DNA of 36,007 nt. Origin: a virus. The stretch lies in UHGV virus genome UHGV-0135626, one strand, 5' to 3'. The notes beneath the pieces were generated by a model. That model was given only the letters and a program-made list of their open reading frames with translations. It had not been told where the DNA came from and did no database searches. Positions 1,057 through 36,007 of this stretch are shown in pieces; the stretch's first letter is position 1; the number at the start of each line of letters is the position of its first letter. The position numbers and the translations under genes are program-made.

Positions 1057-2616
1057 CTAATCTCGTTTCAGAACTCCAAAATCGAATGCTCCATCAATAG
1101 GCAATACACCTTCTGCAAAGCCAGGTGTGGTGTCGATGATGTGTTTTCGCTCATAAGAGTGAGACAACAGGTATTTGTTGCTAATGTCAATGAAATCAGT
1201 GATAAAACACACGTTTGCCTGATTCTTCTTGGCTCGTAAGCCACGACCGACACGCTGTCTCATTTCAACTTCTGCTTTCCCACCACCAGCAAGAATGACC
1301 GCGCCCACACTTGGCACATCAACACCGACATCCAGAATAGTCGAGCCTATTAAAACATCTATTTCGCCAGACGCTAAACTGTTCAGCTTTGCTTGCCTTG
1401 TCGTCTGGTTAGATTCCCCATAGATGAAATCAACTCTAAGACCTGACTCCTTCATCATCTCCATCAGGATTTGCCCGTGGCGTTTAAGACGAACCAGAGT
1501 CATGCAGTTGAGTGAATGTTGCTTATAAAGCAATGCCTCGCGCACTATGGCCTCGTTACGTCCCAAATTATACACGATCCCCAACTGATAAGCCTTTTGG
1601 TAGGCGGTGCTCATACCAACTCTAAAATTGAGGTGTTTGTTGGCAAGTTCGGCCTTGATTCTGGCCTCGTCTGGCTTGTAGGCAACTTTATGATAAAGGA
1701 AGTACGGCTTTGCCAGAATGCCTCGATCAATCAGGTACTTTTCTGTGACTTTAATTTCAATTCGCCCGGCCACCGCCATCAGGCGCATGTTGGCTTCCGT
1801 CGAATCCTTCATGAACGGCGTGGCTGTAAGCGCCAGACGATAGTCTGCGTTCACACATAATCTGGCGATGTCATAGAAATTTGAGCCTGAAGACTCATGC
1901 GCCTCTTCCAGAATAAGAAGAGAGACACTTGAAAGGAAGCGTTTCACCAACTCCCGACGTTTGAGGTGGTAGCTTTTCTTATCTGGTGTTGCATCGCGTG
2001 GTGGTTCTTCGAGGAAACTTGCAAGAGTTTGAACTGTAGCGACGTTGATATGTCGTGATACCTGGAACTCACCCGAGCCAATGACTCCAACCTTTTGGTC
2101 TTTTAACCACGGTTCGCCATTTTCGGCGCGGTAGTCGATGGATCTCTGGAAGTTTTCGGCCATTTGAAACATCAGAACAGAGCGGGTTGTTAAAAATAAT
2201 GTCATTCGACCGATACGTGCAGCTGCTTTGCAGGCAACGTTAGATTTCCCACCACCAGTAGCGATCTGGGCAATCATCATTCCCTCGCGAACTAGTGTTT
2301 CCACAGCCTGATCCTGATATGCATAATCAGGATTGTATGGGAATGGGTTAACCGCCGGATTTGGCTTTCCAAGCGCCGGGGCTTTGTCTTTGCGGATATG
2401 AACACATTTGATGCCCGACTTGTTCAAGTTCGCCGCTACAGGCTTGGCAAAGCCAGCAGGGAACGAGTTTTTACTCCAGTTGAACATCGTGCTTGTGCCC
2501 TTCCAGTCGCCAGTCTCGACTTCGTAGCTCAACATTTGCTGCACCAGTTGCTTTACCTTGTCATCTGCGCCAGAAATAAGCGCATTTACTGCGTTAGATA
2601 CAATCCGAACAGTCAT
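1057..2616 (-). CDS. Superfamily 2 DEAD/DEAH-box helicase (ResIII/UvsW-like)
   Basis: 519-aa ORF with Walker A IATGGGKSN, motif II LILEEAHE, motif III LTATP, motif VI QRVGRGLR. A small gene directly downstream recalls the T4 uvsW/uvsW.1 arrangement (analogy only). Confidence 0.85.
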   Translation of the reverse strand: MTVRIVSNAVNALISGADDKVKQLVQQMLSYEVETGDWKGTSTMFNWSKNSFPAGFAKPVAANLNKSGIKCVHIRKDKAPALGKPNPAVNPFPYNPDYAYQDQAVETLVREGMMIAQIATGGGKSNVACKAAARIGRMTLFLTTRSVLMFQMAENFQRSIDYRAENGEPWLKDQKVGVIGSGEFQVSRHINVATVQTLASFLEEPPRDATPDKKSYHLKRRELVKRFLSSVSLLILEEAHESSGSNFYDIARLCVNADYRLALTATPFMKDSTEANMRLMAVAGRIEIKVTEKYLIDRGILAKPYFLYHKVAYKPDEARIKAELANKHLNFRVGMSTAYQKAYQLGIVYNLGRNEAIVREALLYKQHSLNCMTLVRLKRHGQILMEMMKESGLRVDFIYGESNQTTRQAKLNSLASGEIDVLIGSTILDVGVDVPSVGAVILAGGGKAEVEMRQRVGRGLRAKKNQANVCFITDFIDISNKYLLSHSYERKHIIDTTPGFAEGVLPIDGAFDFGVLKRD

Positions 2617-2680: not shown

Positions 2681-3379
2681 GTGTATTGTAGCAATAAAAT
2701 GGATGTAAAAATCACGATTTTGCAGGTTGATGTTGCCAACCTTCGCCCGAATACCTGGAACACCAATTCGGTTGGTGCGCAGAATTTTGAAAAACTGAAA
2801 GGTTCTATCGAAAAATTGGGCTTTTTTAAGCCAATTTTGGCTCGTGAACTTGAAGATGGATTTTTTGAAATCCTCGGCGGCGAACATCGCTGGCGTGCCG
2901 CTATTGAGCAAGGAATTTCAACGGTTCCAGTGCTTTCTGTGGGCAAAATTAGCGATGTCGTAGCTAAACAGATGTCACTGGTGGACAACGAGCGATACGG
3001 TGAAGACGACCAAATCGCATTGCAACGCTTCATTGAAGAAATTCAGTCAGAACTTGACTATCAACTGTCTGAAATCGCCCCGTATGACGACGAAATCTCG
3101 ATGGTTTTAGCAAAAGAGGCGGCAATCGACCTTGAAGCACTGGAGGCGTTGTCTCGTGGTAGTGATGAGCCTGTCGATACCGACAAACGAGAGAAAACCG
3201 AACGTGTGGGTGCGGAACATCAGACCATGCGCTTCAAAGTAACTTTCGATGCGTCAGATCGTGTTGCAGAAACCATAAAAAACATCATCAAAGAGCAGGC
3301 TATTAACACCGGTAATGAAATGGAGAACGCTGGTGAGGCTCTGGTGTGGCTGGTCGACTACTACAAGGAGCGTATGTAA
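2681..3379 (+). CDS. ParB/Srx-like nuclease-domain protein, copy 1
   Basis: ORF begins with GTG at 2681 (alternative ATG at 2699); neither has a strong SD. ParB N-terminal box FEILGGEHRWRAAIEQG; acidic C-terminal half. Stop overlaps the next start (TAATG at 3377-3381). Confidence 0.75.
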   Translation: MYCSNKMDVKITILQVDVANLRPNTWNTNSVGAQNFEKLKGSIEKLGFFKPILARELEDGFFEILGGEHRWRAAIEQGISTVPVLSVGKISDVVAKQMSLVDNERYGEDDQIALQRFIEEIQSELDYQLSEIAPYDDEISMVLAKEAAIDLEALEALSRGSDEPVDTDKREKTERVGAEHQTMRFKVTFDASDRVAETIKNIIKEQAINTGNEMENAGEALVWLVDYYKERM

Positions 3380-4047
3380 TGACCAAAAAGTTTGAAATCG
3401 TATATCGCGACCCGGCAGATCTTATTCCCTATGAGATGAATGCCAAAAAGCATGATGAACAGCAGATCAGAGATCTGGCCGCAGCCATTAAAAAGCGCGG
3501 ATTTGACCAGCCAATTACGGTCGATAAGAACGACGTAATTATTACTGGTCATGGCCGCCGTGAGGCTGCAATTTTTGCTGGACTTGAGCGCGTACCGGTT
3601 ATTGTTCGCGATGATCTCAGTGATGACGAGGTTCGTGCGAAGCGCCTTGAAGATAACCGACTTGCCAGCATTGATTACGATGCAATTAAGCTACAGAAAG
3701 AGCTTGAGTCGCTTGTTCTGGACGATATCGAGGTTTTCGGCTTTGAAGAGCGTGAGTTGAATGTTCTCGTTGGCAGTATGACAGAAGAAATGGACACCGA
3801 CTCGCTAGTTATCGATCTTGGCGAAGAAACTAAACGACAGAAGGATGAACACACCGAGATCAGTCGTGAAGTTGCAGCGGAAGAAGTACGTGTTGTCGAC
3901 GTATTGGGCTTTAAAACGCTTCCTGCTGGCTCTGCCATTGTTGTTGGTGATTTGCTTGCCCACATGGAAGAAATGACGGGAGAAAGCGGGGTAGACGCAT
4001 TTGTGGCATATGCGGAGAAGATCTCTTCCGGGGAGATGGCTGCATGA
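3379..4047 (+). CDS. ParB/Srx-like nuclease-domain protein, copy 2
   Basis: Start taken at ATG 3379 (MTKKFEIV), overlapping the upstream stop; the track ORF begins at 3346. ParB box IITGHGRREAAIFAG; acidic C-terminal region. Confidence 0.75.
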   Translation: MTKKFEIVYRDPADLIPYEMNAKKHDEQQIRDLAAAIKKRGFDQPITVDKNDVIITGHGRREAAIFAGLERVPVIVRDDLSDDEVRAKRLEDNRLASIDYDAIKLQKELESLVLDDIEVFGFEERELNVLVGSMTEEMDTDSLVIDLGEETKRQKDEHTEISREVAAEEVRVVDVLGFKTLPAGSAIVVGDLLAHMEEMTGESGVDAFVAYAEKISSGEMAA

Positions 4048-4709
4048 GCAAATACATCATCAACGTATCGTTTCAGACACGCGTAAATAAAACCACGCGC
4101 ACGTTGGAAATCGCTGAGTCGTTCGGGCTTGGTCTGGACGAAAAAGAGTGGACGCTTTACGACAATCTGGAGCTGGAAGTGAAGCAGGGCGATGTGGTGT
4201 ACATCACCGGCCAATCCGGTTCCGGCAAATCCGTTGTGCTGCGCGAGTTGCAACGACAGATGAAGGATGAAGGGTTGTCTGTAGCCTCCATCGATGATTT
4301 TACCTTCGATAATGAGGTTAACGTCATCGATCAGTTGGGCAAAACGACCAGTGATGCGCTTGGGTTGTTATCTATGGCTGGTCTGAACGATGCATATCTG
4401 TTTGTTCGCAAGCCTTCTGAAATGTCAGACGGTCAGAAATATCGTCTCAAGATTGCCAAACTGATTGAGTCAGGCGCTAAAGTGTGGGCTGCTGACGAGT
4501 TCGGTGCTGTTTTAGACCGTGTAACCGCTCAGGTTGTGGCATCTAACCTCCAGCGTGTCGCTCGAAAGGTTGGTGCGACGGTAATGGTGGCGACGACTCA
4601 CGAAGACCTGAAGAACGCGCTGCGCCCGGATATGCAGATCACCAAGCACTACAAAGAACGCGTGAAGGTGGAATATCACAATGGCAGTCATGATGAGGTC
4701 CATTCATGA
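4044..4709 (+). CDS. Stand-alone ABC-type ATPase, nucleotide-binding domain only
   Basis: 221 aa. Walker A GQSGSGKS, signature-like SDGQKYRL, Walker B VWAADEF, H-loop TTHED. SD GGGGAG 8 nt upstream; ATGA overlap with both neighbours. No membrane domain or partner. Confidence 0.8.
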   Translation: MSKYIINVSFQTRVNKTTRTLEIAESFGLGLDEKEWTLYDNLELEVKQGDVVYITGQSGSGKSVVLRELQRQMKDEGLSVASIDDFTFDNEVNVIDQLGKTTSDALGLLSMAGLNDAYLFVRKPSEMSDGQKYRLKIAKLIESGAKVWAADEFGAVLDRVTAQVVASNLQRVARKVGATVMVATTHEDLKNALRPDMQITKHYKERVKVEYHNGSHDEVHS

Positions 4710-27859: not shown

Positions 27860-30205
27860 ATGTGGTACAGGGAAGGTACAATAAATCTCACTAAAGGAAA
27901 TAAAACTGTAGTGGGAACAGGCACAGCCTGGGGAGTGACGGCGAACGGCGTCCTTCCAGGTATGATATTGATTGGCCCCGATAATAAGTTATATGAAATA
28001 AAATCAATCGAGAGTGACACTTCGTTAACTCTTGTTGAAGCCTACGGTGGTAGCACCCAAACAAATGTCCCGTGCAGAATAATTACGACCTATGAAGGTG
28101 ATTTAACCCAATTTAGTGCTCGTTTTACTGCGCTTATGTCTCGCATGTCAGCCGATTCAAAAATGATGCGTAGTTGGTTGACTGCCGTGGATGAAATAAC
28201 AATTGAGCGTGAAGATGGCACGGAATTAACCGTAAAATCCCTTACGCAGATCGTTAATGAGCACAATGAGAACCTAGAATGGTATAAAGAAAATACTCCC
28301 ATAATTAACACCGCTGCACAAAAAGCTAAAGAGGCGGCAGCGAGCGCAACAGCGGCCAAAAAATCAGAAACTAACTCAAAAGCGAGTGAGACAGCTTCAA
28401 AGACTAGCGAAACTAATGCGAAAAATAGCGAGGTAGCTGCAAAATCGAGTCAGAGTGCTGCCGCAAACTCCGCTACCGCAGCAAAAAACAGCCAGGATGC
28501 AGCAGCCGAAAGCGAGAGTGCTGCAGCTGGTTCTGCGACTTCAGCAGCTGGATCAGCAACTGCTGCGGCTAACAGCCAGAAAGCTGCGAAGACGAGTGAA
28601 ACTAACGCAAAGTCCAGCCAGACGGCAGCAAAGACCAGCGAAACGAATGCCAAAGCCAGCGAAACTGCGGCGAAAAGCAGTCAGGATGCAGCAGCCGAAA
28701 GCGAGAGTGCTGCAGCCGGTTCTGCAACAGCGGCAGCTAATAGCCAAAAAGCTGCAAAAACCAGTGAAACTAACGCAAAGGCGAGCGAAACAAAAGCAGC
28801 AGCCAGCGAGACAGAAGCAACGTCAGCCGCAACAAGAGCAGAGAATGCAGCCAGGATTGCAGAAGATGCCGCTGATCCTGCTTCTGTCCCTCCGCTTCCT
28901 GATATCTGGCTACCCTTGAATGATTCTCTGGAAGCGATAACAGGGTATGCGCCGGGGTATAAAACAATAACCATCGGCAGCGATGAAATCACTGTGCCAG
29001 TTAATGGCATATGCCAATTTAGCCGGGCTTCATCTGCAACGTATATTGATAAGTCCGGGCATATTACCGTGGCAGGGAATAACGTTCCTCGTTTTGAAAA
29101 ATATGGTTTGCTGATAGAGAATCAGCGAACAAACATGTTCGTAAATAGTTTTAATCCTGATGCGTGGAATAAAAGCGGTGGTATATCTGTAACATCATCA
29201 ACAGATGAATTTGAGTTTAAATATGGACGTTTCACAGTAGGAAGCGACATAGCAGGAACGACAACAGGGAGAAATATATGCACAGTTGCTGGTAATAGAG
29301 GCATAGATGTGACTGGCGATGATCAGTACAGTAAAGGTCCGTATGTTACCGCGTCGTTCAGGGTAAGAAGTGATCTCAATGTTCGCGCACGTATCCGTTT
29401 TGAACGGTATAACTCGGAAGGATACACTTTCCTTTGTGACGCCTATTTGTCATTACAGACCCATGAACTACAAATTACGGGTGATAATGCCCAGCTATTA
29501 ACAGCAAACTTTGAAATCGATCCAGGTAGTGGATGGATATATTTTCAGGCAACCCTGAAATGTCTGCCAGAATGGGGAATGGTTGGTACGCAGTTGCAAA
29601 TTGCAGCCGACAGAGCTGTGGGGTCTTTTGCAACAGGTGACTGGATAGAAGTAACCACCCCGCAATTTGAGTATGGTGCTTGTGCAACTTCCTTTATCAT
29701 AACGACAACAGAGCCAGCTACTCGTGCATCAGATTTATGTAAATTTCCGCTGATGAAAAATATGTATACCATGCCTTTTACGTTCATGGTGGAAGTCCAT
29801 AAAAACTGGTTTATTTCTCATAATGCTGCACCGCGAGTAATTGATACAGAAAACCATCAGTCAGGTGCTCCATTTATCATGGGATTTGGCTCTTCTGGAA
29901 CTATCAGTCAGGACGGTTATCCCTATTGTGATATAGGCGGGGCTAACCGACGTGTATATGAGTCATGCGGAGTAAGAGATCTCGTTATGGGATTCAGGGT
30001 TAAGGCTGACGGCATGACATGCTCATTTGCAAATAAGCATATAAGCACAGAAACAAAAACAGTATGGAAATATATTCGTGAAGCTGCTGTGATTCGTATC
30101 GGGGGACAAACGACGACAGGATTACGACACCTTAATGGACATATAAAAAACCTCCGTTTCTGGAACAGAGCATTGTCAGATACGCAGCTTAAGGAATACG
30201 TATAA
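27860..30205 (+). CDS. Tail fibre protein with Ala/Ser/Glu/Thr-rich repeat shaft
   Basis: 781 aa: conserved N-terminus, low-complexity repeat region, then a Gly/Tyr/Trp-rich C-terminal domain with lower GC, as expected for a receptor-binding domain. Confidence 0.75.
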   Translation: MWYREGTINLTKGNKTVVGTGTAWGVTANGVLPGMILIGPDNKLYEIKSIESDTSLTLVEAYGGSTQTNVPCRIITTYEGDLTQFSARFTALMSRMSADSKMMRSWLTAVDEITIEREDGTELTVKSLTQIVNEHNENLEWYKENTPIINTAAQKAKEAAASATAAKKSETNSKASETASKTSETNAKNSEVAAKSSQSAAANSATAAKNSQDAAAESESAAAGSATSAAGSATAAANSQKAAKTSETNAKSSQTAAKTSETNAKASETAAKSSQDAAAESESAAAGSATAAANSQKAAKTSETNAKASETKAAASETEATSAATRAENAARIAEDAADPASVPPLPDIWLPLNDSLEAITGYAPGYKTITIGSDEITVPVNGICQFSRASSATYIDKSGHITVAGNNVPRFEKYGLLIENQRTNMFVNSFNPDAWNKSGGISVTSSTDEFEFKYGRFTVGSDIAGTTTGRNICTVAGNRGIDVTGDDQYSKGPYVTASFRVRSDLNVRARIRFERYNSEGYTFLCDAYLSLQTHELQITGDNAQLLTANFEIDPGSGWIYFQATLKCLPEWGMVGTQLQIAADRAVGSFATGDWIEVTTPQFEYGACATSFIITTTEPATRASDLCKFPLMKNMYTMPFTFMVEVHKNWFISHNAAPRVIDTENHQSGAPFIMGFGSSGTISQDGYPYCDIGGANRRVYESCGVRDLVMGFRVKADGMTCSFANKHISTETKTVWKYIREAAVIRIGGQTTTGLRHLNGHIKNLRFWNRALSDTQLKEYV
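28330..28870 (+). repeat. Imperfect tandem DNA repeats encoding the fibre shaft
   Basis: Near-identical segments recur about 190 bp apart, e.g. CAGGATGCAGCAGCCGAAAGCGAGAGTGCTGCAGC at 28492 and 28682, and AGTGAAACTAACGCAAAG at about 28588 and 28759. Confidence 0.7.
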
Positions 30206-30474
30206 TGCGGGATATAACATTACGATTCGATAACAGAGAACAGTTTAACGCAATTGTATATGACAGTGGCCTGTTCAGTCTTGAAGAAGAAAATGGGGTT
30301 CTTGTTGATGTTATTGGCTGCATTATTGATTACGAGGAGCCAGAAAACGAAAGATGTACAGGCATTGATCGCGGTGGTTTTTTCGTAAACATGAGGATTG
30401 TTGATAGCAGTAAAAACATATCTTCTTTAATGCCTTTCATTACGACAGATCAGCATGTAAGGACATGGGCTTAA
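30205..30474 (+). CDS. Hypothetical protein in the fibre cassette (possible fibre assembly or adaptor protein)
   Basis: 89-aa ORF with TAATG overlap with the fibre gene stop and SD AAGGAA. AT-rich; no motif recognised. Confidence 0.45.
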   Translation: MRDITLRFDNREQFNAIVYDSGLFSLEEENGVLVDVIGCIIDYEEPENERCTGIDRGGFFVNMRIVDSSKNISSLMPFITTDQHVRTWA

Positions 30475-30486
30475 TGGAGTAAGACA

Positions 30487-31527
30487 ATGGTTACAAAAAC
30501 AGTAATTCCTGATGACATCAAAACGCTAAAATCGGATGTTAGTAAATTAAAAACCGATCAAGGAAACTACGCAACAAAATCTTATGTAGACAATAAAACA
30601 ACATGGAATGGTTATTGCAATTTAATCTATGATCAAAAAACATTGCCAACAACTGGAACTATATTCAGCGGTAAGCTGCATTTGTCAAATAAGACTGGTG
30701 AAACGGAAAACGCTTATAGTGACATATATACCAGAAAAAATATTGATGGTACTAAAGATACAATGACGAGGATCGTCACACATAACGGGACAAAAGGTAT
30801 CTTTTGGGACTTTAGTGATCTTAACGGAGGAACTTTAATTTTTCCAGGCAGTGGTGGTTATCTTAAGATGGGGAACTGCCTCATGTCGTATGGTGTGCGG
30901 GGAAGTAACGCGCTTATTAAGTTTGATTACACCGACACATTACAGATCAAATATGCCAATCATGGGTCAACCATGACATTAAACACACAGGGAACCGCTT
31001 ATGCTGGTGTTACTGCTCAATTGTGGGGCAACTCCAGTCGTCCAGTTGTTTATGAAATTAGGGATGATGGCGGGCTTTTTTTGTTTTATGCACAAAGGAA
31101 CCCAGATAAAACCTATCAGCTTGAGATAAACGGGCCATGCAAGGCTACATCATTCGACCAGGTGTCGGACAGAGATCTTAAAGAAAACATTCAGGTTATT
31201 GATAATGCCACTGAGCGCATCAGATTAATGAATGGGTATACTTACCGTCTCAAGTCTAATGGTATGCCTTATGCTGGCGTTATTGCGCAAGAGGCACTTA
31301 ATGCAATCCCTGAATCAGTTGGTAGCACAATAAAGTACAAGAGCGGGGACAATGGGTCTGATGGAGAAGAGGGAGAAAGATACTATACCGTCGATTACTC
31401 AGGCGTAACGGGTTTGCTTGTTCAGGTAGCCAGAGAGTCAGACGACAGGATAACAGCACTGGAAGAAGAAAACGCAGAATTAAGACAAAGATTATCTGCA
31501 ATTGAGGCGGCGCTTGCGTCTAAATAA
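30487..31527 (+). CDS. Tail fibre protein with C-terminal intramolecular chaperone (peptidase S74-type) domain
   Basis: 346 aa, SD GGAG 7 nt upstream. Residues 227-234 SDRDLKEN match the autoproteolysis site of endosialidase/T5-type fibre chaperone domains; a terminal helical segment (EEENAELRQRLSAIEAALASK) follows. Confidence 0.75.
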   Translation: MVTKTVIPDDIKTLKSDVSKLKTDQGNYATKSYVDNKTTWNGYCNLIYDQKTLPTTGTIFSGKLHLSNKTGETENAYSDIYTRKNIDGTKDTMTRIVTHNGTKGIFWDFSDLNGGTLIFPGSGGYLKMGNCLMSYGVRGSNALIKFDYTDTLQIKYANHGSTMTLNTQGTAYAGVTAQLWGNSSRPVVYEIRDDGGLFLFYAQRNPDKTYQLEINGPCKATSFDQVSDRDLKENIQVIDNATERIRLMNGYTYRLKSNGMPYAGVIAQEALNAIPESVGSTIKYKSGDNGSDGEEGERYYTVDYSGVTGLLVQVARESDDRITALEEENAELRQRLSAIEAALASK

Positions 31528-31976: not shown

Positions 31977-32035
31977 AAAAAGATAAAATGTGATATAAAT
32001 CCGCCATCCCGATTTGACTTTTCATGGAGGAAAAT

Positions 32036-32359
32036 ATGTCGAACGAGATGGCGGGCGTAACAACAGAGCAAGTTGAGCGCATTGCCGCGATCGTTGCTCG
32101 GGAGGTTGTCGGCAAATTAGGTAAAGAGCTACGTGAAGAAATTGGCCAGGAGGTCAACGATCAGCTGAAAACCTACTTTGGTGATATGACCCCGGCGCAA
32201 CATAGTATTCAACACTCCAACCTGGACAAACTCCTTAACCGGTTAGATTCCATCTCCAGTGGGTTCTTTGGCGGCATTGTTTCTAAAATAACGTCGTTCA
32301 TTATTACCGCACTGCTTTTGGGGTTAGCCGCGTATGGCGTGAAAAATGGACTGCAATAA
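32036..32359 (+). CDS. Small protein with one C-terminal transmembrane helix (holin or antiholin candidate)
   Basis: Start at ATG 32036 with SD GGAGG 5 nt upstream (track ORF starts 32024). C-terminal hydrophobic segment ITSFIITALLLGLAAYGV; directly upstream of the putative endolysin. Confidence 0.45.
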   Translation: MSNEMAGVTTEQVERIAAIVAREVVGKLGKELREEIGQEVNDQLKTYFGDMTPAQHSIQHSNLDKLLNRLDSISSGFFGGIVSKITSFIITALLLGLAAYGVKNGLQ

Positions 32360-32372
32360 CAGGAGATCAAGG

Positions 32373-33065
32373 ATGAAGACTCCGAGAGGCATTCGTAACA
32401 ATAACCCCGGTAATCTTGATAAAGGATCGCCGTGGCAAGGTCTGGTTGCTAATCCAGACGAACCCCGCTTTTGCACGTTTAAAGACCCTGTTTGGGGGAT
32501 TCGTGCGCTGGCGGTGACTCTAATTACCTACCACGACAAACGTCGCGCAAAAGACGGCTCAAGTATCGATACCATTCGTGAAGTTATTGAACGCTGGGCA
32601 CCGCCGAACGAAAATAACACTGACGCCTATATTAATGAGGTGTCCAAAGCAGTTGGTGTAACCGCAGACATGATTATCGATCTGCATGATTACGACATCC
32701 TTCGACCTTTAGTTGAGGCAATCATTCGCCACGAGAATGGCCGAGGCCCGCTAAAAACGCTGAACACCTGGTATGCGGCAGAAGTTATTGAGGAAGGTCT
32801 GCGTCGAGCTGGCGTCGTTAAGCCGGTGAAAACGGTGAAGGCTGTTCCTGTAACGAAAGAAACCGCAGGCGCAACTGTTACAGCAGGTATTGGTCTGGCG
32901 CAGCTTGCCGATGTTATGCCGCAGATTTCCGCTGCTATGGATAAAGCACAAGGTCATATCTCTAGCGGGGATACAGTACGCATCATCTTCGGTATTGCCA
33001 CTATTGTTGTGGCAGGATTCATTGCCTGGTCGCAGGTAAGAAAACACCAGAAAGGGATGGTCTAA
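32373..33065 (+). CDS. Putative endolysin / cell-wall hydrolase with C-terminal transmembrane anchor
   Basis: Start at ATG 32373 (MKTPRGIRNNNPGNL) with SD AGGAG 7 nt upstream. Function inferred from position directly before Rz/Rz1; C-terminal hydrophobic segment IIFGIATIVVAGFIAW. No catalytic motif confidently recognised. Confidence 0.4.
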   Translation: MKTPRGIRNNNPGNLDKGSPWQGLVANPDEPRFCTFKDPVWGIRALAVTLITYHDKRRAKDGSSIDTIREVIERWAPPNENNTDAYINEVSKAVGVTADMIIDLHDYDILRPLVEAIIRHENGRGPLKTLNTWYAAEVIEEGLRRAGVVKPVKTVKAVPVTKETAGATVTAGIGLAQLADVMPQISAAMDKAQGHISSGDTVRIIFGIATIVVAGFIAWSQVRKHQKGMV

Positions 33066-33066
33066 T

Positions 33067-33318
33067 ATGCTAGGCAGCCTGATGACAAAGCTAAAAGTTG
33101 CTTTGATTATGCTGGCTGCCGTTCTTTTCGTTCTTGTCGGCGCTTACACGATGGGCGGAAATGCGGCGCGACGAGCAATGGAAGAGAAGGCAAAACAGGA
33201 AGACAGAAAACGACTTCAAAACACAGTGAAAGTGGTGAATGAGACGAGCAGTAAAATACGTCAGAAAGATGCTTCTGCCGTTCATCGTGAGTTGTATGAT
33301 AAGTGGGTGCGTCATTAA
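33067..33318 (+). CDS. Rz: Inner-membrane spanin (Rz-like)
   Basis: 83 aa with N-terminal transmembrane segment (LKVALIMLAAVLFVLVGAY) and a charged helical periplasmic part; a lipoprotein gene is embedded in the +1 frame. Confidence 0.65.
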   Translation: MLGSLMTKLKVALIMLAAVLFVLVGAYTMGGNAARRAMEEKAKQEDRKRLQNTVKVVNETSSKIRQKDASAVHRELYDKWVRH

Positions 33319-33454
33319 ACCACAAACAGCCAGCGTGTTGTTCTGCGATGGGGCTGAGCCTATCTATATCAGCAATAATGATGTAATGACTGAAGAAACC
33401 GAACGCCAAATCCTTTTTCACAATACGATGGGAGAGAGGGTTTGTGGTTGGTGA
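33239..33454 (+). CDS. Rz1: Outer-membrane lipoprotein spanin (Rz1-like), overlapping Rz in another frame
   Basis: 71-aa ORF starting inside the Rz gene and running past its stop. Lipoprotein signal with lipobox ISGC (MRRAVKYVRKMLLPFIVSCMISG|C); short mature peptide. Confidence 0.6.
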   Translation: MRRAVKYVRKMLLPFIVSCMISGCVIKPQTASVLFCDGAEPIYISNNDVMTEETERQILFHNTMGERVCGW

Positions 33455-33461
33455 TGTCGAA

Positions 33462-33483
33462 GTTCCCCTCAAATGAGGGGAAC
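33462..33483. terminator. Stem-loop between convergent genes; candidate bidirectional terminator
   Basis: GTTCCCCTC-aaat-GAGGGGAAC, a 9-bp stem between the Rz1 stop (33454) and the minus-strand toxin stop (33487). Confidence 0.55.
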
Positions 33484-33486
33484 ACA

Positions 33487-34008
33487 TTATTCTTCGAACA
33501 ATTTTTCGATAGATTTTGTAGGATAGAACAAAGAACGCTCGTTGTTACCAACCAGCTGGATAAAGCCTAAACTTTTATAAAACGCCTTGGCTTTGTCATT
33601 TAACGCCTCAACGAAAAGTCCATGAATGCCTACAGCAAGAGATGCATTGTACACAACGCGCATTGCATGTGTTACAAGCATTGAGCCAAATCCTTGACCT
33701 TGAAGGGACTTGTCCAAAGCCAGCCTACCCAAAGTAACACTTGGAACATTCCGATAAGGAACCTTCTTTTGTTTGCTTCTTGAAGGTAAGGACTCCTTTT
33801 CAAAACAACTACCTGACAAAGTGTAATATCCTAACACTTTTGGCCTTTCTTCTTGAGTGCAAAGCACATAAGCACGAAGAATTTTTCCCTCATGCTGCCT
33901 TTTTAAGTGGTTGGCTAAAAAGGCGTTTAGTGACTCTTCGCCGCAATCAAAACCGTTTAGATCATAATCTTTCTCTCCAGAGAAAATCTCTATCGTTGTA
34001 TTGCTCAC
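33487..34008 (-). CDS. GNAT-family acetyltransferase toxin of a type II toxin-antitoxin pair (TacT/AtaT/KacT-like)
   Basis: 173 aa; GNAT motifs (QGQGFGSMLVTHAM acyl-CoA loop, AKAFYKSLGF). Immediately downstream of, and co-oriented with, a DUF1778-type antitoxin gene. Confidence 0.8.
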   Translation of the reverse strand: MSNTTIEIFSGEKDYDLNGFDCGEESLNAFLANHLKRQHEGKILRAYVLCTQEERPKVLGYYTLSGSCFEKESLPSRSKQKKVPYRNVPSVTLGRLALDKSLQGQGFGSMLVTHAMRVVYNASLAVGIHGLFVEALNDKAKAFYKSLGFIQLVGNNERSLFYPTKSIEKLFEE

Positions 34009-34015
34009 GAGTAAA

Positions 34016-34285
34016 CTACTCCATGCTTTTCAGACGATCAGCAGCTCGTTTCAGCTTGTCGTTCGGTGCCGGAGGATTGCTTATAGCGTCCATAACCAGA
34101 TTCCAGGATTCTTCATTCAGAACTAGTCTACGGTGTTGCTCTATAACTTTCACGGCACGTTCAGATGCACTGCTAACCATAAACTGAGTAATGCTCTGGT
34201 TAGACATTGCGGCAGCTTCCTCGATGATGCTTTTATCGTCATCGGTTAATCTCAAATCGATGCGCTGCTTTTTTAGTGCTGACAT
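34016..34285 (-). CDS. DUF1778-type (RHH) antitoxin, TacA/AtaR-like
   Basis: Start at ATG 34285 (MSALKKQRIDLRLTDDDKSIIEEAA), preceded by a perfect SD AGGAGG with 5-nt spacer, giving 89 aa. The track ORF extends to a TTG at 34324. Confidence 0.8.
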   Translation of the reverse strand: MSALKKQRIDLRLTDDDKSIIEEAAAMSNQSITQFMVSSASERAVKVIEQHRRLVLNEESWNLVMDAISNPPAPNDKLKRAADRLKSME

Positions 34286-34324
34286 GTATTCCTCCTGATG
34301 GCCGTGATGTAGGAAGGCCATCAA

Positions 34325-34603
34325 TCTCCTCTGTTCAAACTGAGTTTTCGACTCAAAAATTACTTTAAAAGGCTATAGCCCATTACGTGTGCATTATCAA
34401 ATTGTGTACGGCATATCACCGTACTTGTAATATAGAGGTCATTGTTACTTTTTTCAACAGACAAATACAAGCTATGATTGCCAATTGTTAACCACAACCT
34501 ACCATTTAACCTTTACACCGCAGCCGTAGGCATTTAGGCTATATCACATATAAGAAAACAAGTTGTTTCAGACGATAATTATATACGCAAAGGGAACTCT
34601 CCA
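34325..34603. promoter_or_regulatory. Divergent control region between the toxin-antitoxin operon and parA; candidate operators or centromere
   Basis: 279-bp non-coding gap holding palindrome GGCTATAGCC (34371-34380), inverted repeat GTACGG-N7-CCGTAC (34406-34424) and near-palindrome AAACAAgTTGTTT (34556-34568) about 35 bp before parA. Confidence 0.45.
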
Positions 34604-35272
34604 ATGACCAAGATCTTTGTGGTTGGCGGCACAAAGGGCGGGCCTGGCAAATCCACCGTTGCCCAGCAAATTGCCGTTTGCCTGAAAGTCAAAAAGAAGA
34701 AGAAGGTTTATATTACCGATATAGATATTCAGCGCACGACAACGAGCTGGTGTGAAGACCGTCGACAGAACGAAGACCTTGAGCTGATTCCTTTTGCATA
34801 CGTTCAGGATGACATCATTAAGCACCTAAAATCGCTTCAGGGTAGAGCTGAGTTTGTAGTGGTAGATGCTGGTGGCTTCGACTCCGAAATTCAGCGACAA
34901 GCGATGCTGATGGCTGACGTTATCATTATCCCGCTGCGTCCTAAGCGTCGTGATTTGAAATCTTTACGTGACATCGATCCTATTATCGACAATGTTCGCA
35001 ATGTAAACGATAAAGTGAAGGTCCGCGCGGTCATGAACCAGTGCCCGGCTTTGCCATCACAAGTGTCTCGCATTCTGGCGGCTAAAGAGATTGTTGAGAC
35101 GTTTGGAATCGAGTCTGCGCCAGTCAATCTATATAACCGCAACGTCTATGATGATGCGGAAGAGTCTGGTCGTTCTATCTTTGAAATGACCGGTAGCGAG
35201 CGCGACAAAAAGGCGGAAGCCGAGTTTGAAGAATTTGTAGATTATCTGTTGAGTCTGGAGGAAGAAGAATAA
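34604..35272 (+). CDS. parA: ParA-family partition ATPase (small type Ib form)
   Basis: 222 aa with deviant Walker A GGTKGGPGKST at the N-terminus and no N-terminal HTH extension. SD AAAGGGAA; TAATG overlap with the next gene. Confidence 0.85.
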   Translation: MTKIFVVGGTKGGPGKSTVAQQIAVCLKVKKKKKVYITDIDIQRTTTSWCEDRRQNEDLELIPFAYVQDDIIKHLKSLQGRAEFVVVDAGGFDSEIQRQAMLMADVIIIPLRPKRRDLKSLRDIDPIIDNVRNVNDKVKVRAVMNQCPALPSQVSRILAAKEIVETFGIESAPVNLYNRNVYDDAEESGRSIFEMTGSERDKKAEAEFEEFVDYLLSLEEEE

Positions 35273-35631
35273 TGTCCATGAAAATGGGTGACCTAGCAAA
35301 GCGCAAAGAGCCTGATGCACCGGCTAAGAACACAACTCCTTTGCGCCAACCAGTCAGACCACAAGGACGCCCGACTCGTGGCAAAGAGAAAATTAAAAGC
35401 CGCACTATGTCACTGGAAGACGAATACTTCGAGCTTCTGGAAATGATGAAGTTTATCCCTCGTTTCGAGAAGTTCACCCGCTCTGATGTGATTCGTGCTG
35501 CTATTTTCCATCTGGCAGAGAAGTCACCGCAGGAAATCGAGGACATCGTAAAGCTGAACGAGGCGATCACAGCTGCCGATGTCACGATGCGTACCGATGA
35601 AATTAAACGCGAGTTGATGAAGAAAGGTTAA
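35272..35631 (+). CDS. Small RHH-type centromere-binding partition protein (ParG-like)
   Basis: 119 aa, translationally coupled to parA. Basic, probably disordered N-terminus and a C-terminal ribbon-helix-helix-like region. Confidence 0.65.
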   Translation: MSMKMGDLAKRKEPDAPAKNTTPLRQPVRPQGRPTRGKEKIKSRTMSLEDEYFELLEMMKFIPRFEKFTRSDVIRAAIFHLAEKSPQEIEDIVKLNEAITAADVTMRTDEIKRELMKKG

Positions 35632-35632
35632 T

Positions 35633-35661
35633 AATGTGGGCTGTCTAGCCCACATTATTTT
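35633..35661 (+). terminator. Rho-independent terminator after the partition operon
   Basis: AATGTGGGCT-gtct-AGCCCACATT (10-bp stem) followed by ATTTTAATT. Confidence 0.7.
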
Positions 35662-35682
35662 AATTAAAGTGGAGTGATAATT

Positions 35683-36007
35683 ATGCATTCGTTAGTATTT
35701 GCATTTAAAAACATACTCAAGAATGTTATAAACATACTAGGGATGTTAAATATTTTTTTGTCTGTGAGGGTGAGGAGAAAAGATATAAAAGATAAATTAA
35801 AGGAACTTAACAAAGAAAAAGAACAATTAAAAAGCGAAGAAATTATTATTGATTTATACAAGAAAAAACTCGCATCTAGCAAGGGGAAAGCTAATAATAA
35901 AATCAAAGGAAAAATAATTCACTATATTATTGCTAGAGAGTTGGGGAATGATCCTGATAATGAAGATTTGCGACATAATCTTTTTACAAAGATAAAAGAA
36001 TCAGAAG
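35683..36007 (+). CDS. Partial CDS (5' end) of an AT-rich gene: N-terminal hydrophobic segment then Lys/Glu-rich helical region
   Basis: Open frame from ATG 35683 to the window end (at least 108 codons, no stop), SD GGAG 8 nt upstream. Not in the ORF track because it is truncated. GC content far below the window average. Confidence 0.5.
   Translation, partial: MHSLVFAFKNILKNVINILGMLNIFLSVRVRRKDIKDKLKELNKEKEQLKSEEIIIDLYKKKLASSKGKANNKIKGKIIHYIIARELGNDPDNEDLRHNLFTKIKESE

Follow-up and report, generated by a model that had tools for sequence, protein, structure and literature searches.

Phage-plasmid P1, equipped with parABS and phd-doc, encodes a type Ia ParA, an HTH-type ParB and the Fic-family toxin Doc. 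A temperate phage that resides in its host as a low-copy plasmid, it combines active partition with a toxin-antitoxin addiction module, and the SSU5-type elements are likewise an established phage-plasmid group (PMC7969092). Salmonella phage SSU5, S. Typhi pHCM2 and E. coli Cyrano (pLF82) belong to this SSU5_pHCM2 group, whose relatives are circular plasmids of ~110 kb. SSU5-like phage-plasmids are common; they occur in E. coli and also in S. Typhi, Shigella sonnei and Klebsiella, acting as carriers of resistance and defence genes, so that the means by which they are maintained are of practical interest. For Cyrano, a copy number of 5.5 per chromosome has been measured, and during its lysogeny a KacT-type toxin, the corresponding antitoxin and a 119-aa open reading frame (ORF) are all expressed (PMC9928086).

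Here we analyse a viral genome of 36,007 nucleotides (UHGV-0135626; the whole stretch is referred to below as the window), in which four genes directly downstream of the lysis module had been read, from the sequence alone, as a plasmid-type maintenance block. These genes are present, with outer limits at exactly 33487 and 35631, and a holin candidate, endolysin, Rz and Rz1 adjoin them immediately upstream at 32024-33454. We conclude that 33487-35631 very probably serves the plasmid maintenance of an E. coli phage-plasmid of the SSU5-like (pHCM2/Cyrano) type, comprising a conserved partition operon and an accessory toxin-antitoxin cassette. The maintenance logic of partition plus addiction is shared with P1, but ParA, ParB and Doc of P1 have no homologues among the genes of this block. 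The block is composed of two independent parts, of which the toxin-antitoxin pair lies outside the conserved backbone.

An SSU5-like phage-plasmid and its relatives

At the nucleotide level, the four-gene block shares 98.5% identity with Cyrano and 97-99% with circular E. coli plasmids of ~105-115 kb, of which there are many, while its partition genes are ~86% identical to those of Salmonella phage SSU5; over its first 25 kb, the window is 98% identical to many plasmids of the SSU5_pHCM2 type. A survey of 5,426 complete E. coli genomes gave 266 matches to the block and 283 to these 25 kb, every one of them on a plasmid and none on a chromosome, and SSU5-like phage-plasmids were found in ~5% of the complete genomes in this set. 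Wholly plasmid-borne relatives, together with the identity to Cyrano and SSU5, support assignment of the window to the SSU5/pHCM2 group and uphold the suggestion that the element persists extrachromosomally, its plasmid state being read from its relatives. Gene order is also common to the group, running from virion and lysis genes through a cargo slot to parA and the 119-aa gene, followed by a second cargo slot and helicase/primase genes. The window and Cyrano differ in their tail-fibre genes and in the gene after parB, as the 119-aa gene is called here, whereas SSU5 is without the toxin-antitoxin pair and has two unrelated genes in that slot. Scans with Rfam models and for tRNAs found no RNA genes in the window. 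Three related contigs are labelled Bacillota, Fimivivens and Sphingobacterium in the taxonomy of their metagenome-assembled genomes, labels that probably reflect binning errors.

The complete reading of a close relative, pWP4-S18-ESBL-07_2, supplied the replication initiator for which a search had been proposed: a RepB-family protein, its gene flanked by iteron-like repeats, is encoded there along with DnaE, a DnaB-like helicase, primase and ligase. The statement that no integrase is visible is correct within the window; the same relative, however, encodes a tyrosine recombinase ~14 kb to the right of where the window ends. As the relatives are located purely on plasmids, a role in resolving multimers, in the manner of Cre, is more likely for this enzyme than one in integration. 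Since the element type, the plasmid state and the KacT-type toxin have all been published already, the phage-plasmid nature of the element included, they bring no new biology. The less familiar ground lies in the partition genes, their leader and the slots on either side of them.

The partition operon

The first gene of the operon (34604..35272, plus strand) encodes a small ParA-type partition ATPase of 222 aa, recognised by the Pfam families MipZ, AAA_31 and CbiA and by phrog_164, ‘ParA-like partition protein’ (4e-51); against the NCBIfam model ParA_partition it scores 115.7 bits, under the cut-off of 180. Its deviant Walker A motif, GTKGGPGKST at residues 9-18 (K11...K16), corresponds to that of ParA/MinD-family ATPases (KGGxxGK[ST]). 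The best relative of solved structure is ParF of the type Ib partition system of TP228 (4DZZ, 1.2e-10), and Soj is also matched. Like ParF, the protein is small and devoid of the N-terminal DNA-binding (HTH) extension of type Ia, its residue 9 aligning to ParF residue 8. Compared with the 88%-identical plasmid pYY76-1-1, all four genes of the block are under strong purifying selection (dN/dS 0.03-0.06), with parA at 0.03.

In a one-base overlap (TAATG) with the stop codon of parA begins the gene for the 119-aa partner, a predicted centromere-binding adaptor (35272..35631, plus strand), which was adjacent to parA in all 93 loci examined and has a dN/dS against pYY76-1-1 within the range given above. 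Residues 1-47 are predicted to be disordered and form a tail in which the motif MGDLAK is conserved and a stretch, RPQGRPTRGK, is rich in Arg and Lys; beyond the tail, predictions place a ribbon-helix-helix (RHH)-like strand/helix/helix candidate, SRTMSLEDEY...FTRSDVIRAAI, and then two more helices. In this the protein resembles ParG of TP228, which is also small, encoded downstream of its ParA and furnished with a flexible basic N-terminal tail (a predicted feature here), though ParG has 76 aa rather than 119 and the two extra C-terminal helices are peculiar to the present protein. Sequence and profile searches of Pfam, NCBIfam, PADLOC and the PDB gave nothing significant for it. In hhalign comparisons, the family profile showed no similarity to ParG (1P94, probability 0.09) or to omega repressor, and aligned in register but weakly with CopG. 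A second model gave no RHH match either. An exhaustive profile search of 1.84 billion cluster representatives gave 18 hits in all, none of which linked the protein to a known family.

The sequence-only reading had described a type Ib partition pair with an RHH partner. Its ParA half stands, in the form of a small ParF-like ATPase whose Walker A motif is deviant, but the type Ib, RHH character of the partner has weak support: the disordered tail and the RHH-like segment are predicted, yet no Pfam or PDB sequence match and no similarity to ParG were found, and RHH is the one part of that description which we treat as no more than plausible.

Upstream of parA lies an ultra-conserved non-coding leader of 107 bp (34497..34603, plus strand; core 34510-34570), which begins at the very position where homology to relatives lacking the toxin-antitoxin pair starts. 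In alignments, its identity to relatives is 86-93.5%, although the parA genes of these relatives agree at only 50-62% of third-codon positions. Within it are a candidate promoter-like site, TTTACA (34512-34517) and TAGGCT (34535-34540) separated by a 17-nt spacer, and a dyad, AAACAA-G-TTGTTT (34555-34567), whose arms are kept and whose centres differ in the two most distant loci. The leader is a candidate for the par promoter, the operator and possibly the centromere. A (candidate) cis site upstream of parA is shared with TP228, but parH of that plasmid is an array of tetramer boxes, whereas one dyad and no array was found here: repeat finding and TRF detected no repeat array near parAB, and, such arrays being typical of type Ib centromeres, this counts to some extent against the reading given here, as does the single dyad. 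In a complete 110-kb relative, the dyad and TAGGC-N3-TAGGC are each present a single time, and the only repeat clusters there are iteron-like arrays on either side of repB and four copies of GAAACGGC clustered ~2.6 kb to the left of the window's start; nothing was found that ties either of these to ParA.

By analogy with ParF/ParG of TP228, partition might proceed as follows. The sigma-70-like promoter in the leader would drive parA and the translationally coupled 119-aa gene, whose product may dimerise through its RHH-like core and bind the leader, most likely at the AAACAA-G-TTGTTT dyad. Bound there, it would repress the par operon and mark the plasmid, while its disordered basic N-terminal tail would stimulate the ATPase of nucleoid-bound ParA, and sister plasmid copies would be pulled apart.

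The toxin-antitoxin cassette

On the opposite strand, the antitoxin gene (34016..34285, minus strand) precedes the toxin gene (33487..34008, minus strand) with a gap of 7 nt, the same order of antitoxin then toxin as in the AtaRT and KacAT operons; here, the pair occupies a cargo slot of a phage-plasmid, unlike the chromosomal AtaR-AtaT and KacA-KacT. The antitoxin, of 89 aa, starts at an ATG preceded at five bases by AGGAGG, belongs to the DUF1778/TacA family (Pfam TacA1, 5.7e-26) and is, by sequence, an orthologue of KacA (6.6e-42) and AtaR (1.3e-40), in keeping with the DUF1778 antitoxin originally proposed. Its dN/dS against pYY76-1-1 is 0.04. A 102-aa ORF with a TTG start was rejected as the antitoxin gene, being merely an upstream extension of the 89-aa ORF.

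The toxin, 173 aa from a GTG start, likewise agrees with the GNAT toxin first described. It scores above the cut-offs of Pfam Acetyltransf_1, _7 and _10 and falls in the AtaT/KacT subfamily, with E 1.4e-79 to AtaT of E. coli O157:H7 (6GTS, 6AJM; residues 1-172 aligned) and E about 1e-75 over its full length to KacT of Klebsiella pneumoniae (5XUN, 5ZGN), both collinear with it from end to end and free of gaps; its dN/dS against pYY76-1-1 is 0.06. The acetyl-CoA motif (Q/R-x-x-G-x-G/A) is represented by QGQGFG at residues 103-108, with G108 kept. The roles of AtaT residues in catalysis and in contact with the tRNA acceptor stem have been described (PMC7595197), and 16 of the 19 that were compared are identical, including the catalytic tyrosine Y144 and L27, F30, H34, R37, S76, S78, K79, K81, K82, P84, Y85, R95 and L136. 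Most tRNA-contact residues are thereby kept; the three of the 19 that differ are A26S, K77R and R40E, the last of which reverses a charge in helix alpha-1, and R71K is a further, conservative change, so that tRNA preference may differ from that of AtaT. On these grounds the toxin is a predicted aminoacyl-tRNA N-acetyltransferase.

In the region, a consensus scan found its best promoter-like match (10 of 12 positions) in TTGAAA (34457-34452) and TATATT (34434-34429), with a 17-nt spacer, the candidate toxin-antitoxin promoter (34406..34457, minus strand). At the expected transcription start lies a dyad, GTACGG-N7-CCGTAC (34406-34424), the arms of which are preserved and the centre changed in pYY76-1-1 and in a Kluyvera relative, and which may be the antitoxin's operator. 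At the other end of the cassette, a G+C-rich hairpin with a 9-bp stem (33462..33483), scored as terminator-like in the consensus scan, occupies the gap that separates the stop codon of Rz1 (33454) from that of the toxin (33487); it is a candidate bidirectional terminator that may part the convergent lysis and toxin-antitoxin operons. In a type II cassette of this AtaRT/KacAT kind, the antitoxin would neutralise the GNAT toxin and repress the operon; upon plasmid loss the labile antitoxin would decay and free the toxin (post-segregational killing), which would then acetylate the amino group of charged tRNAs and bring translation to a stop.

Alternative readings

It is instructive to ask how else these genes might be explained. 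Were the element an integrated prophage, its partition and toxin-antitoxin genes would be relics, a notion to which the tyrosine recombinase of the close relative and the presence of SSU5 repB/parA fragments in the chromosomes of 13 S. Agona genomes (bioRxiv 10.1101/2025.09.12.675607) lend some substance. Relics, however, sit ill with strong purifying selection on all four genes, Cyrano has been measured as a plasmid (PMC9928086), and of the E. coli matches counted above, 0 of 266 and 0 of 283 are chromosomal; with no chromosomal match among 5,426 complete genomes, integration was rejected as extremely unlikely. Equally improbable is the description of the 119-aa ORF as a RelE/ParE-type toxin, the sole support for which is the annotation of CYRAN_29 in the Cyrano deposit and its listing among toxins in PMC9928086. 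Neither a RelE/ParE nor any other toxin was matched in Pfam, NCBIfam, PADLOC or the PDB, the structure is predicted to run from a disordered basic tail into helices, and the gene is always coupled to parA and has no antitoxin-like neighbour; similarity to RelE/ParE was thus found neither in sequence nor in fold, and the 119-aa partner is an uncharacterised protein wrongly annotated as a toxin. A somewhat better case, and still an improbable one, can be made for ParA's true DNA-binding partner being one of two tandem ParB_N proteins encoded within the window at 2681-4047 (PF02195, E 3e-13 and 1.5e-8) ahead of an ABC-type ATPase, which would leave the 119-aa ORF, itself without a recognised DNA-binding domain, as a regulator or as unrelated. 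Yet these genes belong to the packaging region, at a distance of 31 kb, and neighbour the terminase genes, PHROG hits identify such proteins as common phage nuclease- or methylase-associated modules, and ParF, the closest solved relative of this ParA, pairs with a small protein that is not of the ParB_N kind; the one-base overlap with the parA stop and the constant company of parA (93/93 loci) likewise favour the 119-aa protein as the partner.

For the toxin-antitoxin pair, the choice is between addiction and other kinds of service to the element. Of 264 E. coli relatives, 150 carry it and 43% do not, so that it is not needed for maintenance; it alternates, in a mutually exclusive manner, with an unrelated two-gene cassette, phrog_2594 + phrog_3307 (92 loci), and its G+C content of ~41-42% departs from the 47-49% of the backbone. 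The pair is therefore swappable cargo, and several cassettes can take this place in the element. These same observations could be taken to mean that the cassette is primarily competitive or defensive, acting in abortive infection or as a guard against displacement by related phage-plasmids without the pair, as could the defence genes in the opposite slot (59 of 92 loci) and the defence systems reported in SSU5-like elements (bioRxiv 10.1101/2025.09.12.675607). Against this, neither toxin nor antitoxin matches a PADLOC defence model, in the papers searched and read AtaRT/KacAT-type systems were not reported to act against phages, and post-segregational killing can coexist with competition between plasmids; we consider a primarily defensive role rather unlikely, and retain the accessory addiction cassette as the preferred reading.

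A possible partition anchor between two cargo slots

The partition genes are accordingly bracketed by two cargo slots, of which the one that follows parB is, in the relatives, a hot spot for anti-phage defence: the recognised or candidate defence genes counted there are PD-T4-3, PD-T7-5, PDC-S31 and PDC-S49. That slot is bounded at 35630..35659 by a perfect, terminator-like hairpin with a 13-bp stem, an inverted repeat that begins at the parB stop codon and at which, in alignments of parB 3' ends, homology to most relatives ends. We tentatively suggest, at somewhat less than even chances, that the 119-aa protein represents a new and very narrow family of centromere-binding adaptors acting on a minimal, single-dyad centromere within the 61-bp invariant leader, and that it forms with parA a fixed anchor between two recombination hot spots at which addiction and defence cassettes are swapped. 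A 61-bp candidate is thereby given for the centromere of this large plasmid family.

Four maintained genes beside the lysis operon

The toxin-antitoxin and partition block that the sequence-only reading had placed at 33487-35631 is borne out by four open reading frames spanning exactly those limits. The toxin (33487-34008, minus strand; 173 aa) scores above the Pfam GNAT cut-offs, and its residues 1-172 align without gaps with the solved structures of AtaT (6GTS, 6AJM, 7CHD; E 1e-79) and KacT (5XUN, 5ZGN; E 1e-75). Its antitoxin (34016-34285, minus strand; 89 aa) matches TacA/DUF1778 in Pfam at 5.7e-26, as well as KacA (6.6e-42) and AtaR (1.3e-40); the longer TTG-start version in the mechanical ORF list is an artefact, the real start being the ATG preceded by AGGAGG. 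On the plus strand, parA (34604-35272) encodes a 222-aa ATPase of the ParA/MinD family with a deviant Walker A motif (GTKGGPGKST, residues 9-18) and a match to phrog_164, 'ParA-like partition protein', at 4e-51. The start codon of its partner gene, parB (35272-35631; 119 aa), overlaps the stop codon of parA as TAATG. Relative to the 88%-identical plasmid pYY76-1-1, dN/dS is 0.06 for the toxin, 0.04 for the antitoxin, 0.03 for parA and 0.06 for the partner, so all four are maintained genes and not chance ORFs.

AtaT depends on G108 to bind acetyl-CoA and on Y144 to catalyse the reaction (PMC7595197). The window toxin keeps both, together with L27, F30, H34, R37, S76, S78, K79, K81, K82, P84, Y85, R95 and L136, and departs from AtaT at A26S, R40E, R71K and K77R. 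Because these residues are kept, homology makes it very probably an active aminoacyl-tRNA acetyltransferase, and one that may not share AtaT's tRNA preference.

A phage-plasmid of the SSU5 type

Identity over the block is 98.5-98.9% with Escherichia phages Cyrano and CMS-2020a, and 97-99% with many E. coli plasmids that are circular, non-mobilisable and 105-115 kb long; Salmonella phage SSU5 (86% identity) and Klebsiella phage-plasmids (about 80%) align with it over the par genes alone. The window, Cyrano, SSU5 and the plasmid pWP4-S18-ESBL-07_2 share a single gene order, in which tail genes, holin, endolysin and Rz/Rz1 precede the block, and helicase, primase and ligase follow it. Across 5,426 complete E. 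coli genomes, every match to the block (266/266) and to the first 25 kb of the window (283/283) lies on a plasmid, and neither has a chromosomal match; the right-hand 11 kb does match chromosomes, only through tail-fibre genes common to lambdoid prophages. In the complete sequence of pWP4-S18-ESBL-07_2, iteron-like repeats flank the gene of a RepB-family initiator, and other genes code for DnaE, a DnaB-like helicase, primase, ligase, RecA and an S24 peptidase. SSU5-type elements form a defined phage-plasmid supergroup (PMC7969092); for Cyrano, alias pLF82, the measured copy number is 5.5 per chromosome, genotoxic stress induces it, and in lysogeny it transcribes its KacT-type toxin, the antitoxin and the 119-aa ORF (PMC9928086).

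The proposal of an extrachromosomal phage-plasmid is thus supported by the plasmid-only matches in E. coli, the replication genes of a close relative, an initiator among them, and the published data on SSU5 and Cyrano. The sequence-only reading saw no integrase in the window, and this holds for the window itself; pWP4-S18-ESBL-07_2 carries a tyrosine recombinase. Because all relatives are plasmids, that enzyme probably resolves multimers rather than serving as an integrase. The evidence supports an ordinary member of a well-described family, for which the phage-plasmid reading was already known.

The recombinase gene adjoins a transcriptional regulator about 14 kb past the right end of the window (NZ_AP022089.1 56435-57919; L015:6435-7919 in our numbering of loci). 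The same plasmid carries host-like apbC and metG (methionyl-tRNA synthetase), dfrA51, nrdAB, thymidylate synthase and three tRNA genes (L016:4017-7308, L015:37293-37769); metG is a curious companion for a toxin that, by analogy, would be able to acetylate Met-tRNAfMet. The tail-fibre genes of the window (27860-31527) are unlike those of Cyrano and are shared with lambdoid prophages on chromosomes, where they have thousands of matches; a Peptidase_S74 intramolecular chaperone domain forms the C-terminal end of the 346-aa protein at 30487-31527. The MAG labels of three par-locus contigs (L008, L012, L013) read Bacillota, Candidatus Fimivivens and Sphingobacterium, probably through binning errors, since the contigs have the gene order of an enterobacterial phage-plasmid.

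Two cargo slots around parAB

The homology shared with SSU5, PhiR41_1 and many E. coli plasmids begins only at about window position 34497. A match is present in 264 E. coli genomes; 150 of these have the block in full, and most of the others only the par half, from about the same position. In a set of 92 related loci (IMG/VR, GTDB genomes, GenBank), many of them near-identical and their counts non-independent, the slot that follows Rz1 and precedes the par leader is occupied by the GNAT pair in 45, by an unrelated co-directional pair, phrog_2594 (about 132 aa) and phrog_3307 (about 255 aa), in 36, and by other genes in the rest. The toxin-antitoxin segment has a G+C content of 41-42% vs 47-49% in its neighbours. 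The toxin-antitoxin pair is cargo, not backbone, which we count among the modest new points of this analysis. The phrog_2594/phrog_3307 cassette (for example L004:2769-3944 and L002:4797-5953) never occurs together with the GNAT pair, has no match in Pfam or PADLOC, and may be its functional analogue for addiction or defence.

A hairpin at 33462-33483 parts the toxin-antitoxin segment from the convergent lysis operon. The best minus-strand promoter-like site (TTGAAA-17-TATATT, 34457-34429) has at its expected transcription start a dyad, GTACGG-N7-CCGTAC, whose arms are kept in two relatives while the centre varies, as would suit an antitoxin operator. Within the long antitoxin leader, a hairpin with an 8-bp stem (34296-34323, minus strand; TGATGGCC-N12-GGCCATCA), also kept in pYY76-1-1, ends right at the AGGAGG ribosome-binding site and could modulate antitoxin translation.

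On the other side, the parB stop codon is the exact point at which homology with most relatives breaks off, and a hairpin particular to each variant stands there. From there to a conserved phrog_2500 gene, the 92 loci (again non-independent) hold PD-T4-3, a GIY-YIG protein (28), PDC-S31, a DUF2971 protein (24), PDC-S49, a P-loop NTPase (6), PD-T7-5 (5), an unknown protein of about 360 aa (16) or a pair of membrane proteins (11). In 59/92, one or more genes match a PADLOC model for known or candidate defence, and the slot is an anti-phage defence hot spot, a further modest addition. This setting, with parAB as the fixed anchor between two cargo slots, keeps alive the alternative in which the toxin-antitoxin pair has a part in competition or defence in addition to addiction.

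The window is of the membrane-protein type: G+C falls to 27% directly 3' of the parB stop (35632-36007), and an ORF from 35684 runs off its end. In the one relative that matches in full (L003:10383-11550), the corresponding ORF codes for a coiled-coil membrane protein of 250 aa, and a second membrane protein, of 140 aa, comes after it; the two (phrog_22270 and phrog_17322, of unknown function) are distant homologues of SSU5_035/036.

The partition pair and its candidate cis site

Of the proposed type Ib ParA/RHH pair, the ParA half is supported: ParA is small, without the type Ia N-terminal domain, and its nearest solved relative is ParF of TP228 (1.2e-10). A ribbon-helix-helix fold for the partner is plausible but unproven. 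The 119-aa gene sits alongside parA in 93/93 loci examined, in a remarkably narrow family (25 matches among 5.8 billion clustered proteins; 18 members in an exhaustive profile search of 1.84 billion representatives) with no Pfam domain in the members found. Conserved in its alignment are an N-terminal motif, h-G-(D/G)-L-x-K, with a variable linker after it, the basic stretch Q-G-R-P-T-R-G-K, then I-K-S-R-T-M-S-L-E-D-E-Y and, past a helix and a loop, F-T-R-S-D-V-I-R-A-A-I; AlphaFold predicts residues 1-47 to be disordered and four helices to follow (pLDDT 63-68). The R-S-D-V-I-R-A-A signature, sub-threshold, in-register RHH_1 matches in two distant relatives (E 0.005, 0.11) and a weak in-register alignment with CopG speak for the fold; against it count the lack of any significant match in the searches made, of similarity to ParG and of RHH matches with a second model. 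The Cyrano annotation of this ORF as 'RelE/ParE putative toxin' is without support in Pfam, NCBIfam, PADLOC or PDB. The partner is an orphan protein, wrongly annotated, another modest new point.

No repeat array was found near parAB. The 107-bp leader 5' of parA (34497-34603) keeps 86-93.5% identity to relatives whose parA genes agree at just 50-62% of third-codon positions, and its core (34510-34570) is almost invariant. The core holds TTTACA-17-TAGGCT, with the dyad AAACAA-G-TTGTTT lying about 15 bp downstream of it; a complete 110-kb relative contains this dyad just once. Its arms persist around differing centres in the two most distant loci (AAAACAA-C-TTGTTTT and AAAACA-TT-TGTTTT), as would be expected where a protein binds. 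It is the best operator candidate and perhaps a centromere core, and the conserved single-dyad leader joins the modest new points as a candidate cis site.

In NZ_AP022089.1 the sole repeat cluster besides the repB iterons, four copies of GAAACGGC in about 110 bp of a 600-bp non-coding stretch (L014:3228-3340), lies about 2.6 kb left of the window start and could be a packaging or centromere-like site. Within the window, 31 kb from parA, two tandem ParB_N-domain genes (2681-3379 and 3346-4047, plus strand; PF02195 at 3e-13 and 1.5e-8) and an ABC-type ATPase gene (4044-4709, plus strand) closely precede the terminase genes and diverge from a DEAD/ResIII helicase gene (1057-2616, minus strand); their candidate roles are packaging, nuclease activity or a second segregation-like function.
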